A stretch of DNA of 64,000 nucleotides from the NCBI GenBank assembly GCA_037128515.1, contig JBAXWF010000007.1, positions 5,021-69,020 of the forward strand, in the 5' to 3' direction. The notes under the pieces are model-generated. The model worked only from the letters and a program-made list of their open reading frames with translations, did not search any database and was not told the DNA's origin. This stretch comes from Bacteroidota bacterium (lineage in GTDB: Bacteria > Bacteroidota > Bacteroidia > Bacteroidales > CAIWKO01). Positions within the stretch are counted from its first letter, which is position 1. Each line of letters begins with the position of its first letter. Position numbers and translations under genes: made by a program. This document shows positions 14,085-50,715 of this stretch, piece after piece.

Positions 14085-14375
14085 TTATTTGTTGACTTTG
14101 TAGCCCAAGGCTTGGAGCTTGGACTCTAAGGAGGCTTTGGTTTTTAATGTGGTGTCGTAAACAATTGTTACTACTTTTTTTCGTAGGTGTGCTTTTACAA
14201 AACTAACTCCGTTTTCGGTCATCAGATTTTTCTCGATGGTGGCTTTGCCCTGTTCGCTTAAGGTATCTATTTTAATTTCTATTTGTGTGTTGGTGGTGCT
14301 TTTTTTGGCACAGCCGCTGTTGACAATGGACAGCATGGCGAATAGGCATAGTGTTGTAATGACTACTTTTTTCAT
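14085..14375 (-). CDS. lipoprotein with an HMA-like (ferredoxin-fold) domain lacking the CxxC metal site
   Basis: Lipobox LSIVNSGC. C-terminal pattern ..GV..v...l....v.i.yD......l...l...GYKV is typical of HMA domains, but there is no GMTCxxC. Confidence 0.5.
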   Translation of the reverse strand: MKKVVITTLCLFAMLSIVNSGCAKKSTTNTQIEIKIDTLSEQGKATIEKNLMTENGVSFVKAHLRKKVVTIVYDTTLKTKASLESKLQALGYKVNK

Positions 14376-14539
14376 TGTTTTTTCTATTTTTTTGAATAAC
14401 GCGGTGGTAAAATTACACTAAATAGTTTAATGCGGAATTGTGAAAAAGGGTTGGCAGGTGAATCAGTGGGAAGGGGGTGGGAAATACTAAACGTAATGAG
14501 ATGGGATAGATATGAGCAAAGGGCTGTAAACAGGGGGTT

Positions 14540-15060
14540 GTGTAACTATGACGGAGCAACATCAAGGAATGACGGAGTGACATCAAGGAATGACGACGCC
14601 ACATCAAGGAATGACGACGCAAGAACAAGGAATGACGGGGCAACATCAAGGAATGACGGGGCAACATCAAGGAATGACGGGGCAACATCAGGGAATGACG
14701 ACGCGATAACAAGAAATAACGGTGCAAGAACATGGAATGACGGTGCAACATCAAGGAATGACGGTGAGAGAACAAGGAATGACGGTGGATGTATAGGAAA
14801 TGACGGATGGGATGCATGGAATGGCGATGGGTGTATGCGAAAAGACGGAGGGTTTTTAGAAAATGACGAAGGATTTTCAAGTGATTTTGTTGGGGTAAAT
14901 TGTTTCTGAATTGGAAAAGTGCGATTATGCACCGAGAGAATTGGAAATGTTGGGGCGTTTTTTGGAAATGTAGGTGCGATTATTAGAAATGAAGATTGGA
15001 TTATTGAAATAAATGTAGCGACTATTGAAAATGGTGCAGGGATTTTTTGAAAAGTTGAAC
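14540..15060. repeat. tandem minisatellite B, 21-bp period (16 strict units, a degenerate gap, then about 6 units in the same register)
   Basis: The ATGACGG core recurs at 14548+21n for n=0..15. The TTGGAAATG-type units at 14941, 14962, 14983, 15004 and 15025 have their ATG at 14947+21n, in register with the first block. Confidence 0.95.
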
Positions 15061-15089
15061 TAAAAAAATGAAAGGGAGGGGGGGGAAAT

Positions 15090-15169
15090 AGGTAAGAGGT
15101 AAGAGGTAATTTTTTTTAATGAAGAATGAAGAGTGAAGAGTGAAGAATGAATGTCGATTGTCGATCTAT
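15090..15169. repeat. 7-bp microsatellites (AGGTAAG)x3 and (GAAGAGT/GAAGAAT-type)x7
   Basis: aggtaag aggtaag aggtaat at 15090-15110. gaagaat gaagagt gaagagt gaagaat gaatgtc gattgtc gatctat at 15121-15169. Confidence 0.9.
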
Positions 15170-15287
15170 AAAAAAGGTTGACCGTTTTAACTGGTTTAGT
15201 AATGCTATTTATTTTATATTTTTTTTGTTTTAATTTTTTTGTTGGAAACCGTTGAAACTGTTTTGGGAAGGGAAATTGTTTTGGTGA

Positions 15288-15307
15288 CCCACGAATGAAT
15301 TCGTGGG
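15288..15307. other. perfect palindrome / hairpin cccacgaat-ga-attcgtggg
   Basis: 9-nt arms that are exact reverse complements. Confidence 0.7.
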
Positions 15308-15518
15308 CTATTGTTTTTGGATGATAGGTTGAGGGTGTTTTTTGTTGGTTTTGTTGTTTTATTTTTTTAATTTAATAAGGTTATAAGGTTGATTTTTTGT
15401 GTTGCTTTTTTCTCTACTATGGTTGGCGGAAGGGAAATAAAGTTTTTTTTTTGTTTGAGTTGTTTTTTAAACCGTTGTGGGAAGGGATGGTGATTTATTA
15501 TAGTCTCAGGATTGAAAT

Positions 15519-15560
15519 AGGTAAGAGGTAATAGGCTATAGGCTATAGGCTATAGGTAAT
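15519..15560. repeat. 7-bp microsatellite (AGGTAAG/AGGTAAT/AGGCTAT) x6
   Basis: aggtaag aggtaat aggctat aggctat aggctat aggtaat. Confidence 0.9.
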
Positions 15561-15589
15561 ATGTTTTTTTAGTAGGAGGTAATTTGATT

Positions 15590-15790
15590 TAATGGCGGGG
15601 TGAAAGGGTTGTGGATGGTGGAAGGATGGCAGGGCACAGCGCCGGGAATGAAACAGGCTGGGGATGGCTCGCCCGCGCAAGGGACAGCAGCGAAAAGCCC
15701 GCAGCGCAGCGAGGACTTGTAGCGAATGGCCCGACCCGCAGGGTTGCGCCCAAAAGATGTTGAAGATGGGAGGTTGAAAGTTAAAAAATC
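15590..15790. other. GC-rich non-coding element of unknown function upstream of the GRE operon
   Basis: The stretch gcagggcacagcgccggg...gcccgcagcgcagcgaggacttgtagcgaatggcccgacccgcagggttgcgccc is embedded in AT-rich repeats. Only a spurious antisense ORF overlaps it. Confidence 0.4.
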
Positions 15791-15851
15791 GTATTTCGGC
15801 AATTAAATACCGAATTGTGTTGCTTTTTGTTTTTTTTATTTAAAATTGTAG

Positions 15852-15859
15852 TATTTTTG
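15852..15859 (+). promoter_or_regulatory. -7 promoter box TATTTTTG for the hpd-like operon
   Basis: Exact TAnnTTTG about 50 nt upstream of the ATG at 15908. Confidence 0.4.
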
Positions 15860-15907
15860 TAAATGTTTTAGAGAAAAGGTTACGCAAACCACTAACGGAA
15901 GGTGATT

Positions 15908-18592
15908 ATGAAAGATGATTTTTTAGCTTGTTCGACGGAGATTTATAACTACTACGGTGCGAAGCCGGAAGGCGACATTGAATTGCGCGAGCAAAAGCCG
16001 CAAGCGACGGCGCGTGTGGAAAAACAACGCGAAATGTATTTTGAAGCCAAGTCGTCGGCTTCGGTTGAGTTTCCGTATTGGTACACGCGTAGGTGGGAGG
16101 AATTGGATGGGGAGGTGGCGATTGTGCGCCGCGCGGAAGCGTTGAAAACGGGTTTTGAACATTTGACTCCGGCTGTTTTTCCGGGGGAACTGTTGGCGAT
16201 GCGTAAGGCGATTTATTTGCGGGGCTCCTACCCTATGCCGTGGTTGTCGGAGGGGTTTTTTCTGGCTAAGGAAGATGAGTTGTTTGTGCAAGCGCAAAAC
16301 GCGGGAAAAAATAGTGCCGACGAGGTTACTACTATGGGACAAGGCGGCGGGAATGTGACCCAAAGCGTTGGCAAGGTGATATCGATAGCAGGGAAATTTG
16401 GGTTGCGCAGCGAGGAAATGCCTATTTTGTTGAAAACGGCCAAAAAATGGTTTAACAAATCGGTGGATGATGTGGGGCACAAATATGAGCAGTTGGTTCC
16501 GGATTATCAGACCAAAGAGGAAATTATGCGTGCGGTGATTTGCATGTTTGATTCGGGTTACACGCTGCCTCAAGGCCGGGAGGTGATGAACTATTACTAT
16601 GGGCTGCAATATGGCATTGGGGGTATTAAAGGGATTTGCAACGAAAAGATTGGCGCAGCAGCGGGTAAACCGGGCATGGATAGGATTTATTTTTATAGGG
16701 CGGTGCACACGGTGCTGGAGGGTTTGCAAACCTGGATACTGAACTATGCTAAAGAGGCGCAACTGATGGCTTCGCTGGAAACAGACGCTGCGCAGAAACA
16801 GGAGTTTTTGGAAATGGAAGAGCGGCTGGTGTGGCTTTCGGAAAATCGTCCGCGTTCGTTTCATGATGCGTTGCAATTGATTTGGATTTTGCATGTGGCG
16901 GTGCTGAACGAGGATGCTATTTCGGGTTTGTCGCCCGGTCGCTTGGGTCAGGTGTTGTTTCCCTACTGGAAACGGGATATGGAAAAAGGTGTGCTGGACC
17001 GAGCTCGTTCGATTGAGTTGCTGGAGTGTATGCGTATGAAATTTACGGAATTGGATTGTTTTGCATCGATGGGTGTTGTGGGGGGTGTGTTGAGTGGAAA
17101 CACGTTTAACAACCTTTGTGTTGGGGGCTTGGATAAAGATGGCAATAGTGCTGCGAACGAACTGGAGGTGCTGATAATGGAATCGGCCATGAGTTGCGAT
17201 ACGCCGCAGCCTACGTTGAGTTTGCTGTTTGACGAGAAACTGCCGGAAGCGTTTTTGCTGAAAGGGGTGGATTGTACGAAAATTGGTACGGGGTATCCGG
17301 CTTGGGTGAACAACCGCGTGGGGATGGAGTTTTTGCTGAATAACTTTAAAAAGGAAGGCATGGATGTGGAAGAAGCGCGTGCATGGGCTATAGGGGGATG
17401 CTTGGAAACATCTGCCGGAAGCTGGATGCCGCTGGAGTTGGATGGGGAAACTTGGTTTATTCCGGGTGGTTCGGCACCGGCTACTAGTGTGGGTGTGCAT
17501 TTTATTTCGTTGCCCAAAGTGCTGGAAGCGGTTTTATATAACGGATTGGATAAACGCACGGGACGCCGTGTATATCCGGCACACGACCGCGAATTGACAT
17601 CATATAACGCGATTTGGGATGTGTTTAAAAACTATTTCAGCATTACGGTGGAGGTGCTTACGTATGCCAACAACATTCAACACGATGTGTGGGGCAAGGT
17701 GTCGCCATCTATCATCAACAGTATGTTGAAACCCGATTGTCTGGAGGTGGGAAAAGATATTAGCAACAAAGGCTGCCGCTATAACCGTACGTTTAATGTG
17801 GAGATTTGTGGTGGTGTGAATTTGGTAAACTCGCTGGCATCGATAAAAAAGAATGTGTTTGAAGAAAAAAACTTTACACTTACGGAACTAAAACTGGCTA
17901 TTGATAGCAACTTTGGTTATGTTTCGGCTTTGGAAACGGGCTCGTATAGTTTAACCGAACAGGTGAAAACGGATGATTATATGGATTGGTTAAAAATACA
18001 TAAGCAATGTATGGATGCTCCGAAATATGGGAACGATGATTTGTATGTGGATTCTATTTTTAAAGAATGGCAGATTTGGTTTAGTGGGATGTGCGAGCAC
18101 TATGTTTCTATTTACGACGAACCCTTGTATTCGTGCCAAATATCGGTTTCGACGCATGCCCCCATGGGTGCTGTTACGCTTGCCACAGCCGACGGACGTT
18201 TGTGCGGTACGACATTTTCGGATGGTTCGGTTTCGGCTTATCCGGGAACGGATAAAAACGGACCCTACGCTTTGTTTAATTCGGCGACATGTTATAATCA
18301 TGCTTTGTCGCAAAACTCGCAGCTCAATATGAAGATTCACCCTTCGGTGGTGCGAGGCCGCGAGGGATCGCGTAAGTTTTTGGAAATGATAAAAGCGTAT
18401 TTGCGTAAAGGTGCTTTTCATGCCCAGTTTAATGTGGTGGATTCGCGTATGCTGAAAGAAGCACAGAAAAACCCGGACAACTACAGAGGATTGATGGTGC
18501 GGGTGGCAGGTTTTACACAATATTGGGTGGAACTTGGCAAGCAGATACAAGACGAAGTTATTGCGCGGACAGAATATGAACAAATTAATTAA
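15908..18592 (+). CDS. hpdB: glycyl radical enzyme, 4-hydroxyphenylacetate decarboxylase large subunit type
   Basis: C-terminal RVAGF glycyl radical motif, GGCLE thiyl loop, and Ser/His/Glu positions at a constant offset to remembered 4-HPAD residues (see finding). ATG at 15908 is preferred over the track GTG at 15902. Confidence 0.8.
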   Translation: MKDDFLACSTEIYNYYGAKPEGDIELREQKPQATARVEKQREMYFEAKSSASVEFPYWYTRRWEELDGEVAIVRRAEALKTGFEHLTPAVFPGELLAMRKAIYLRGSYPMPWLSEGFFLAKEDELFVQAQNAGKNSADEVTTMGQGGGNVTQSVGKVISIAGKFGLRSEEMPILLKTAKKWFNKSVDDVGHKYEQLVPDYQTKEEIMRAVICMFDSGYTLPQGREVMNYYYGLQYGIGGIKGICNEKIGAAAGKPGMDRIYFYRAVHTVLEGLQTWILNYAKEAQLMASLETDAAQKQEFLEMEERLVWLSENRPRSFHDALQLIWILHVAVLNEDAISGLSPGRLGQVLFPYWKRDMEKGVLDRARSIELLECMRMKFTELDCFASMGVVGGVLSGNTFNNLCVGGLDKDGNSAANELEVLIMESAMSCDTPQPTLSLLFDEKLPEAFLLKGVDCTKIGTGYPAWVNNRVGMEFLLNNFKKEGMDVEEARAWAIGGCLETSAGSWMPLELDGETWFIPGGSAPATSVGVHFISLPKVLEAVLYNGLDKRTGRRVYPAHDRELTSYNAIWDVFKNYFSITVEVLTYANNIQHDVWGKVSPSIINSMLKPDCLEVGKDISNKGCRYNRTFNVEICGGVNLVNSLASIKKNVFEEKNFTLTELKLAIDSNFGYVSALETGSYSLTEQVKTDDYMDWLKIHKQCMDAPKYGNDDLYVDSIFKEWQIWFSGMCEHYVSIYDEPLYSCQISVSTHAPMGAVTLATADGRLCGTTFSDGSVSAYPGTDKNGPYALFNSATCYNHALSQNSQLNMKIHPSVVRGREGSRKFLEMIKAYLRKGAFHAQFNVVDSRMLKEAQKNPDNYRGLMVRVAGFTQYWVELGKQIQDEVIARTEYEQIN

Positions 18593-18607
18593 CAGGGAAA
18601 AGAAATT

Positions 18608-18841
18608 ATGATACACTACGATTGCAAATATTACCTTAGTTTGGATGTTTTTAAAGGTATTTGTAAACTCGATAAAAACAAAATAAATGCTGACGAGGTA
18701 TCGTGCGACAAATTTGAGAAAGCACAGAAATGCAAATTTTGTTCGAATTATACTGCTACCCAACCCAACTTGGGCAGGTGCAAGAACACGTATGATGCGT
18801 ATCCGGAAATGAATGCCGTGACATGCAATGAATACAAGTGA
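18608..18841 (+). CDS. hpdC: 4-hydroxyphenylacetate decarboxylase small (gamma) subunit type, two predicted [4Fe-4S] sites
   Basis: 77 aa beginning MIHYDCKYY. Ligand sets are H3/C6/C19/C33 and C42/C45/C58/C73. It lies between the GRE and activase genes as in hpdBCA. Confidence 0.7.
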   Translation: MIHYDCKYYLSLDVFKGICKLDKNKINADEVSCDKFEKAQKCKFCSNYTATQPNLGRCKNTYDAYPEMNAVTCNEYK

Positions 18842-19760
18842 GCTAAAAGCAACTATTTTCGATATTCAGGGACTCTCGGTACACGACGGACCCGGGTGTC
18901 GCACGCTTATATTTTTGAACGGTTGCACGATGTCGTGTTTTTGGTGCTCCAACCCCGAAGGCATGAGCAGCAGACCCAGTTTATTGTATTATCAACCCAA
19001 TTGTGTTGTGTGTGGCAATTGTGCCAACAGTTGTGCATACAACGCCATTACGGTGGAAACAGATAAAATTGCGATTGCCCGTACTATTTGTAAAAACTGT
19101 AGCGAGCCCGTGTGCGTTAGCCAATGCTTTACGGATGCATTGCGACTGAGTGGTTATGAAATAACGGTTGGAAAACTGATGGAAATTATACAACGCGACC
19201 GACAGTTTTGGGGCAGCCATGGTGGGATGACGCTTACGGGTGGGGAGCCTTTGATGCAAATTGATTTTGCCGAAGAGCTGTTGAAAAGGTGTTACGACTC
19301 GTATGTTCACACTGCCATAGAAACATGCGGAAACATTGCGTGGCAAAATTTTGAACGGGTGCTTTCCTACTTGGATTGGATATTTTTTGATATTAAGCAT
19401 TTTGATAACGCAACGCATAAAAAGGGTACGGATGTGAAAAACACTTTAATACTTGACAATGCGAAAAAGCTTGCAGCGGGGTTTAAAGGTAAACTTATGT
19501 TTCGGTTGCCCTTGGTTCCTGATTTCAACGATTCGGACAGCAACCTGAAAGCAACGATTGCCTTTCTGAAGGATTGTGGCAGAAATGAAATTAATATTTT
19601 GCCGCTGCACAGGCTGGGTGGCGAAAAATACAAAATGCTGGATAAAGAAAACGTGATTGCTGATTACGTTATTCCTACTCATGAATCGTTAAAAACGATA
19701 AAAAATGTTTTTGCCGAAAGGGGTATAACATGTTATATCGGTAGCGAAACGCCGTTTTGA
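18828..19760 (+). CDS. hpdA: glycyl radical enzyme activating protein (radical SAM, with additional ferredoxin-like clusters)
   Basis: GCTMSCFWCSNPE (CX3CX2C), CVVCGNCANSC and CKNCSEPVCVSQC. Overlaps hpdC by 14 nt. Confidence 0.85.
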   Translation: MNTSELKATIFDIQGLSVHDGPGCRTLIFLNGCTMSCFWCSNPEGMSSRPSLLYYQPNCVVCGNCANSCAYNAITVETDKIAIARTICKNCSEPVCVSQCFTDALRLSGYEITVGKLMEIIQRDRQFWGSHGGMTLTGGEPLMQIDFAEELLKRCYDSYVHTAIETCGNIAWQNFERVLSYLDWIFFDIKHFDNATHKKGTDVKNTLILDNAKKLAAGFKGKLMFRLPLVPDFNDSDSNLKATIAFLKDCGRNEINILPLHRLGGEKYKMLDKENVIADYVIPTHESLKTIKNVFAERGITCYIGSETPF

Positions 19761-50611: not shown

Positions 50612-50715
50612 AGGTAATAGGTAAGAGGTAAGAGGTAATAGGTAAGAGGTAAGAGGTAATAGGTAAGAGGTAATAGGTAATAGTTGTGTCCATTCTTCCG
50701 ACTTCCGACTTTCTT
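50612..50715. repeat. 7-bp microsatellites: (AGGTAAT/AGGTAAG)x10 (50612-50681) and (CTTCCGA)x2-3 (50695-50715)
   Basis: Read directly. The array starts 4 nt after the TGA of the 914-aa ORF and has a 21-bp super-period (AAT-AAG-AAG). Confidence 0.95.

Follow-up and report, generated by a model that had tools for sequence, protein, structure and literature searches.

Structure of the 21-bp array and its module

We analysed an intergenic minisatellite, here called Minisatellite B, in a stretch of 64,000 nucleotides from the genome of a Bacteroidota bacterium of the order Bacteroidales (GenBank assembly GCA_037128515.1, contig JBAXWF010000007.1; C74:5021-69020 in our contig numbering). This whole stretch is referred to below as the window, and coordinates given without a contig name are positions within it; the complete assembly that was searched comprises 3.52 Mb on 106 contigs. 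The array lies in a 1526-bp spacer flanked, as the original prediction had stated, by an HMA-domain (HMA-like) gene on one side (14085-14375, minus strand) and an hpd-like glycyl radical operon on the other (15902-19760). Taking all the evidence together, the array is probably best explained as part of a non-coding module of ~615 bp, present in two copies and belonging to a larger class of 21-bp arrays, in which a core, a leader and the 21-bp phase have been kept and which is a candidate docking array. The parts of the module are as follows.

14468..15082, plus strand: the whole non-coding leader-array-tail module, ~615 bp, aligned to a second copy at C96:53310-53903
14468..14544, plus strand: leader, ~75 bp of unique sequence that adjoins the first unit; best-conserved part of the module
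14545..14880, plus strand: block 1, 16 units of 21 bp with consensus GGAATGACGGTGCAACATCAA; unit positions 1-9 are the core, positions 10-18 and 21 are variable
14881..14943, plus strand: three strongly degenerate units (4, 1 and 2 core matches of 9), the 63-bp spacing being kept
14944..15069, plus strand: block 2, six decayed units of the GAAATG/TTGGAAATG type, in register with block 1
15070..15082, plus strand: right end of the module, entering a G8 run (15078-15085), where similarity to the second copy stops

Read in a 21-bp register that starts at 14545, the array (14545-15070) has a lag-21 identity of 0.655, compared to 0.282 +/- 0.020 in dinucleotide shuffles (z = 18.6), and Tandem Repeats Finder (TRF) calls it with period 21 and a score of 277. 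The 16 phased units originally described are thereby borne out, although the ATG said to recur in every one of them at 14548+21n is present in 14 of the 16 (n=8 reads ATA and n=14 reads AAG). The 9-bp core GGAATGACG is matched at all nine positions in 10 units of block 1 and at 6-8 positions in the remaining six. The proposal that a second block continues the register of the first also holds, as its first ATG, at 14947, equals 14548+19x21, and further ATGs follow at n = 20, 21 and 23. Block 2 by itself has a lag-21 identity of 0.62 (z = 7.2), and the degenerate units and block 2 taken together have one of 0.533 (z = 6.4). The degenerate stretch between the two blocks is conserved in the second copy, and the phase is carried through it into block 2.

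The variable blocks of the units are point variants of one another rather than unrelated spacers. The units at 14629 and 14650 are adjacent and identical, and the next, at 14671, differs from them by one change, which shows recent whole-unit expansion. No 7-bp substructure was found inside the 21-bp units (lag-7 self-match 0.275 vs. a background of ~0.27). The plus strand of the array is strongly A+G-rich, and clusters of A-tracts and T-tracts recur every 21 bp in the tail.

Three reading frames are open over the array, one of 159 aa on the plus strand and two of 155 and 128 aa on the minus strand. The original prediction took these open reading frames (ORFs) for artefacts, and our tests agree with it in showing that the array is non-coding. 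Column-permuted units yield 2.56 open frames of six by chance, and over 70 arrays of this genome at least one open frame occurs in 91.4%, compared to 90.6% expected, with six arrays lacking any. The minus-frame peptides of the two module copies are 55-59% identical at 83% DNA identity, which matches unselected DNA, and the plus frame stops after ~82 codons in the second copy. Differences between the copies, sorted by unit position, show no third-codon-position pattern; a Pfam search of the array frames gave no credible match, and a crude coding score did not class the frames as genes. The open stretches of 128-159 codons could be read as a heptad-repeat protein (DGATSRN..., RHSLMLP...) or as a leader peptide, but given these results such a product is scarcely credible.

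Two copies of the module and their uneven divergence

A search of the whole assembly located a second copy of the module at C96:53310-53903, on another contig of the same genome, with 83% identity to the window copy. In their global alignment 493 positions agree and 101 are substituted, the only gap is one of exactly 21 bp, and similarity ends sharply on both sides of the module. The 307 bp from 14776 to 15082 are 80.5% identical without an indel, and 75 of the 76 positions from 14470 to 14545 are identical. Both copies are intergenic, that on C96 lying between a cyclophilin gene and ORFs that belong to no family. The module has been dispersed to two unrelated loci in this genome, and the 21-bp gap, together with the adjacent identical units at 14629 and 14650, shows that the array changes length by whole units.

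No terminal inverted repeats were detected, in that no inverted match scoring >=7 exists between 70-bp windows at the module ends in either copy. Direct repeats at the ends differ between the copies (8-bp GGGAAATA in the window, 9-bp GAAAAGTTG on C96). No empty site was found because unit and leader are absent both from 40 related species and from public contigs; the leader junction has no exact match in public metagenome or genome contigs, and viral contigs, plasmids and phages contain nothing similar to the array or module. Absence from close relatives had been named beforehand as an outcome that would speak against a role for the array, and finding unit or leader in 0 of the 40 related species does so weakly.

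The differences between the two copies are distributed as follows.

Core, unit positions 1-9: 6 of 135 positions (4.4%)
Rest of the unit: 44 of 180 positions (24.4%)
Leader: 4 of 77 positions (5.2%)
Tail: 47 of 202 positions (23.3%)

The contrast between the core and the rest of the unit has a Fisher p of 6.5e-7, and it recurs within each array. In both, ~80% of unit-to-unit variation falls in a 9-nt window at unit positions 10-18 (permutation p = 0.002-0.008). A variable position has as many as four alleles and a core position none or one, and the per-position variation profiles of the two arrays correlate (rho = 0.89). Because homogenisation copies whole units, it does not make such a partition into core and variable parts. 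Out-of-phase indels between the copies number zero for 101 substitutions, compared to 8.4 expected (P = 2e-4) from the non-array intergenic repeats of the same genome, in which 479 mismatches are accompanied by 40 gap openings; the corresponding expectation for the tail by itself is 5.0 (P = 0.007). We infer from this sequence comparison that the array is not neutral filler, its core, leader and 21-bp phase having been preserved against a roughly fivefold faster divergence of the tail and of the remaining unit positions. Pure slippage, offered originally as the null hypothesis, does not account for this constraint on core, leader and phase.

The likeliest way for the array to work is as a series of identical sites that, being spaced by two helical turns, all face the same side of the DNA, and on which a DNA-binding or nucleoid protein would dock cooperatively. 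A sequence-specific reader of the core, docking cooperatively on one face, is a tentative proposal to which we give a little less than even weight. The phased binding platform of the original prediction stays alive in this form, given the constraint; its dedication to the neighbouring operon does not, since the second copy has no such operon. The leader might in addition contain a promoter that faces the adjacent gene, as in BrickBuilt, a minisatellite-bearing MITE (miniature inverted-repeat transposable element) found in Porphyromonas gingivalis (Klein et al. 2015, Mob DNA 6:18; PMC4596501). The candidate is the following.

14485..14520, minus strand: Bacteroidota-type -33/-7 promoter-like site TTTG-N21-TACGTTTA in the leader, facing outward to the HMA-like gene, ~113 nt before its ATG

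The 1.5-kb spacer has just one other full -33/-7 match, and the TAnnTTTG motif is clearly used in this genome, where it peaks 20-40 nt before start codons. Such matches also occur in 6-9% of 200-nt upstream regions per strand, and that in the leader is on its own weak evidence of a promoter.

Several observations weigh against constraint and docking. The indel control is small (20 alignments), and some out-of-phase indels do occur in other array families (14 per 406 substitutions), a lower rate at which zero indels here would have P ~0.03. Units evolve in concert, so that the core statistics are inflated when each unit is counted separately; for the consensus, nine unchanged core positions at ~24% divergence have P ~0.09. 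A comparable partition into core and variable block is found in only five of 28 arrays of the genome, two of the five being this very pair, and for this reason the binding-platform reading is not extendable to the whole class. The core GGAATGACG turns up nowhere else in the intergenic DNA of this genome, and a search for a partner gene showed that the two neighbourhoods have no gene or protein in common within 8 kb on either side. As to the leader, its site matches the -7 box at 5 of 6 positions, and both adjacent genes have nearer -7-like boxes, as judged by eye.

Arrays of 21 bp across the genome and in Bacteroidota

Minisatellite B belongs to a class of intergenic arrays with a 21-bp period that is defined by the present, unpublished census, and it has the features of that class: a period of 21/42, a non-coding and intergenic position, and a unit unrelated to those of other arrays. 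For the whole genome, TRF returned 621 rows, of which 235 have period 21, 49 period 42, 26 period 63 and 8 period 84; merged, the arrays of the 21-bp family occupy 208 loci and 23.5 kb. Exact 10-mers in intergenic sequence recur 2597 times at lag 21 but only 127 times at lag 20 and 84 times at lag 22, with harmonics at 42, 63 and 84. Sorted by fundamental period, the non-genic arrays number 156 at 21 and 14 at 42, compared to 5 at 20 and 12 at 22. The genome thus holds about 170-200 dispersed intergenic minisatellites that share a length of 21 (or 42) bp and not a sequence.

At least 72 unit families can be distinguished, unrelated in sequence, and the 72 representatives resemble one another no more closely than do random intergenic 21-mers of matched GC content, except that slightly more pairs than expected agree at 14/21 positions (23 vs. 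12.2 +/- 3.9). Common descent of all unit families was therefore rejected, their similarity being otherwise at the random level. Among 13 strong 42-bp arrays, seven are true 42-mers with unrelated halves.

Many arrays are present in more than one copy: 87 of 190 fall into 29 multi-locus families, while shuffled units gave 0 links. Similarity between the flanks of family members extends 0-276 bp, and some families have only the array in common. One example is the following element, with three TACCGTTAACTGA cores (palindrome GTTAAC inside) at 21-bp spacing and unrelated flanks at all three loci.

C1:120243-120301, C26:29471-29529 and C86:6667-6721: 59-bp element with three TACCGTTAACTGA cores

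It resembles a triple operator or a flank-less mobile array. Isolated two-copy duplications number six at 21 bp and 0-2 at any other length from 13 to 49 bp; as five of the six belong to dispersed families, de novo birth by a length ruler is not demonstrated by them, and this candidate explanation was set aside. An association of arrays with promoters was likewise rejected. Divergent spacers hold 42 arrays, co-directional ones 50 and convergent ones 18, which is close to what spacer length would give, with only a mild enrichment of arrays in divergent spacers and no depletion in convergent ones. A separate observation concerns the 50 arrays between co-directional genes, in which the strand that is sense for the flanking genes holds more A than T (mean AT skew +0.12, p = 0.003, a figure that has no ordinary-intergenic control).

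Assembly bears on these counts. Contig ends coincide with 59 of the 208 arrays, the same units recur at several ends, and the arrays break short-read assembly, so that assembled copy numbers are lower bounds. Inside much longer genes there are 22 further tandem-repeat loci of period 21, which may encode genuine heptad-repeat proteins or reflect the same process at work in frame. The lag spectrum of coding sequence also peaks at 21 and 42, with the proviso that the crude gene calls include some array ORFs.

To place the class taxonomically, relatives were sampled for 21-bp arrays at about 100 kb each. Three congeners (G004, G014 and G006) have long 21/42/63-bp arrays with other units, at 12, 7 and 3 loci, respectively; two more genomes (G010 and G017) have few and short arrays, and another (G008) has none in 46 kb. 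Other genera and families contain no arrays or a few of two or three copies, among which 21 is still often the commonest period. Several species within the genus thus show the 21-bp habit strongly, and in the rest of the order it is weak.

A pattern of two cores gave 19 hits in public contigs, mostly a single match each, and every one lies within a 21- or 22-bp array that has an unrelated linker. The contigs found by this pattern come from Prevotellamassilia, Prevotella, a Sphingobacteriaceae genome and others and carry 21-23-bp arrays in clusters, which indicates that arrays with periods near 21 bp are widespread in Bacteroidota. Different 21-, 22- and 23-bp arrays stand side by side on L065 (Prevotellamassilia timonensis NZ_JADYUH010000001.1), L071, L062, L061 and L057, and on the first of these some units carry GC-rich hairpins inside a 232-bp higher-order repeat. 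In the literature we found no paper on a lineage-wide 21-bp period. Minisatellite B is a BrickBuilt-like module in an apparently undescribed, period-locked class.

BrickBuilt is, by likeness of architecture, the closest published relative of the module. Both are found in a Bacteroidales host and consist of a leader, a spacer-less tandem array of ~20-nt units and a tail; both are intergenic and multi-copy, expand and contract by whole units, have conserved and non-conserved unit halves, and give rise to spurious hypothetical ORFs. They differ in unit length (23 nt in BrickBuilt, 21 nt here) and in that BrickBuilt has 12-nt terminal inverted repeats, related to the IS5 family, which the module lacks. 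It further has target-site duplications, for which the module shows only the end repeats given above, unlike between its two copies. BrickBuilt is also a single sequence family of 19 copies, whereas the module family has 2 copies and is accompanied by at least 72 unrelated unit families of the same period. The outward promoter of the BrickBuilt leader is demonstrated (PMC4596501); that of the module is a motif match alone.

Heptanucleotide repeats, namely the cyanobacterial short tandemly repeated repetitive (STRR) sequences and the Beggiatoaceae TAACTGA repeats (PMC4679880), resemble the 21-bp arrays in being lineage-specific, genome-wide and intergenic, with a fixed unit length and a function that is not known. 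Their period is 7, in contrast to a period of 21 here without lag-7 self-similarity. A eukaryotic parallel is the PATC minisatellites derived from Helitrons in C. elegans, which are also minisatellites of selfish elements with a period tied to the DNA helical repeat and are proposed to act via DNA mechanics rather than a short protein motif (bioRxiv 10.64898/2026.08.08.743475). The PATC sequences have a 10-bp A/T periodicity that encodes curvature, whereas 111 units of our arrays show no 10.5-bp A/T harmonic (z = -0.9), although no curvature model was applied.

The spacer, competing explanations and significance

Outside the module, the spacer is also made of repeats. The G8 run, 7-bp arrays, palindrome and GC-rich element named in the original prediction are all present, and a hairpin element is also among them.

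15090-15109, 15118-15151 and 15531-15556: heptamer arrays (AGGTAAG, AATGAAG and ATAGGCT) called by TRF, sharing the spacer with the 21-bp array
15157-15226: dispersed repeat of ~58 bp (gtcgattgtcgatctataaaaaaggttgaccgttttaactggtttag...), ~10 copies in the genome, including C96:55677
15288-15307: palindrome
15384-15781 (core 15666-15740), plus strand: GC-rich element, recurring at C17:25254-25631, C22:25390-25705 and C85:85375-85542
15902-19760: hpdB/hpdC/hpdA-type glycyl radical operon (PFL-like and Gly_radical domains; 4HPAD gamma N-terminal domain; radical SAM activase)

The core of the GC-rich element has a sub-threshold match to the Rfam Flavo-1 RNA (RF01705; 30.3 bits vs. a gathering score of 42, E = 5e-4). 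Its ~85-nt core recurs many times in the congeners G003-G015, and on C17 and C22 the element also adjoins 21-bp arrays with other units. The ~58-bp repeat overlaps a terminator-like hairpin at 15160-15182. Near-identical matches to the AATGAAG array exist in other genera and families (G010, G020, G022 and G030), whereas the 21-bp units are species-specific; one more heptamer array is listed at 50612-50683. Further neighbours in the window include PorP/SprF, a CotH-type cargo protein of the type IX secretion system and an asparagine synthase. The type IX secretion genes, the TAnnTTTG promoter signal and the Flavo-1-like motif are the sequence features by which this analysis places the genome in Bacteroidota.

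The glycyl radical operon has no orthologue among the 40 related species (best match 35% identical); it is for that reason judged accessory by sequence, and the glycyl radical enzyme offers no anchor for a synteny comparison with them. An accessory operon with an array in the spacer upstream of it, and A-/T-tract clusters every 21 bp in the tail, would fit a phased platform, a curved-DNA element or an insulator specific to that operon. This idea, raised in the original prediction, is largely refuted, because the same module stands at a second locus without any such operon, and we consider it very improbable. The 830 bp between the end of the array and the start of the operon hold other dispersed repeats and two terminator-like hairpins, and the operon has a -33/-7 promoter-like site of its own (15826-15859); both speak against an insulator or regulator, as does the presence of ~200 arrays with this period beside genes of every kind. 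The lack of a 10.5-bp A/T periodicity in the units tells against the curved-DNA element in particular.

An account that needs no function treats the module as a neutral, selfish or junk minisatellite: a decaying dispersed repeat that changes by slippage and has inherited its 21-bp period, the conservation of its core being due to concerted evolution and chance. Much of the census is what this account would lead one to expect. Arrays occupy every intergenic context, convergent spacers included, near the numbers that intergenic length predicts, and many are multi-copy; five of the six isolated two-copy 21-bp duplications are in dispersed families and so are not clear local births. Turnover is fast, since the unit is absent from 40 relatives, the long decayed tail indicates that units are allowed to degenerate, and the consensus-level test of the core gave only P ~0.09. 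Yet whole-unit homogenisation cannot explain why ~80% of the variation lies in positions 10-18 next to a near-invariant core in both copies, nor does neutrality account for a leader that is 5% diverged beside a tail that is 23% diverged, or for the absence of out-of-phase indels. An inherited period, moreover, would have drifted in families that are dissimilar at the random level, whereas 21 outnumbers 20 and 22 by more than 10 to 1 and unrelated halves mark seven of the 13 strong 42-bp arrays as true 42-mers. On this evidence we consider a neutral origin unlikely, although it deserves to be taken seriously. A portable promoter module of the BrickBuilt type, whose leader drives the HMA-like gene in one place and the cyclophilin gene in the other with the array as an upstream activating or UP-like platform, strikes us as rather improbable. 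It would draw on the TTTG-N21-TACGTTTA site on the minus strand of the leader, on the leader being the most conserved module part, and on the position of a minus-strand gene start ~100 bp past the leader end in both copies, with similarity ending at about the expected transcription start; BrickBuilt leaders and tails have outward promoter activity (PMC4596501). Against it stand the imperfect match, the frequency of such matches upstream of genes, the nearer -7-like boxes at both adjacent genes, and an implied 5' untranslated region of ~113 nt, longer than the 20-40 nt typical of this genome.

Transcription of the repeat itself, as a multi-unit small RNA, a protein sponge or the antitoxin array of a type III toxin-antitoxin system, is a poor prospect. 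BrickBuilt arrays are transcribed, one of them having been called as a small RNA (PMC4596501), and an A+G-rich plus strand with an invariant 9-nt motif could equally be the site of an RNA-binding protein. The array nevertheless has no RNA structure signal (fold z = 0.02 for the plus and -2.1 for the minus strand), no Rfam match and no inward-facing promoter-like site. Type III arrays lie upstream of a toxin endoribonuclease and form structured RNA, whereas no toxin-like or other shared gene adjoins the two copies of the module. Known antitoxin repeats, at 34-40 nt, are also longer than 21 nt. Arrays of replicon or partition systems offer a formal match, as the iterons of R6K, RK2 and P1 and the sopC centromere of F (12 x 43 bp) are tandem, helically phased protein-binding cores with a variable remainder, and the period of Minisatellite B is near that of plasmid iterons. 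The cooperative docking on one face that we propose for Minisatellite B is the mechanism of such arrays. Those arrays adjoin the gene of their binding protein on a replicon, however, whereas the module has no partner gene and occupies two unrelated chromosomal loci, and hundreds of unrelated arrays share its period. Guide-RNA arrays (CRISPR, TIGR and VIPR) also combine conserved and variable parts in tandem units (10.64898/2026.10.21.760802), but they have unrelated spacers and an adjacent effector, while the variable blocks here are point variants. No rep, par, cas or tas-like gene lies beside either copy, the neighbours being ordinary chromosomal genes, and nothing similar is found in plasmid, phage or viral contigs; we give an iteron, centromere or guide-RNA array practically no weight.

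A docking module remains the explanation we favour for this locus, and for the class as a whole we raise, with considerable doubt, a process of the lineage that would measure DNA length and ignore sequence. It could be an architectural or nucleoid protein whose oligomer advances by two helical turns (21 bp) and favours or stabilises arrays of that period whatever their sequence, or a duplication or repair activity that makes and spreads 21-bp quanta. In either case Minisatellite B, given its invariant core, conserved leader and phase free of indels, would be among the arrays captured for sequence-specific docking.

Intergenic tandem repeats of bacteria are usually regarded either as neutral markers for typing or as switches of phase variation at single loci. 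The ~200 arrays of this 3.5-Mb genome have in common a length of 21 bp, or two helical turns, and not a sequence. The diverged paralogue adds what a census alone cannot, namely that core, leader and phase were kept while the rest decayed. In practical terms, such arrays break short-read assemblies and yield spurious heptad-repeat ORFs in annotation. If nothing reads the arrays, they would be a clean natural system for studying what fixes the unit length of a minisatellite. If a protein or a mechanical property does read them, they would represent a level of chromosome organisation or gene control that has gone unrecognised in Bacteroidota, and if the reader is a nucleoid protein that measures length, a bacterial counterpart of satellite chromatin.

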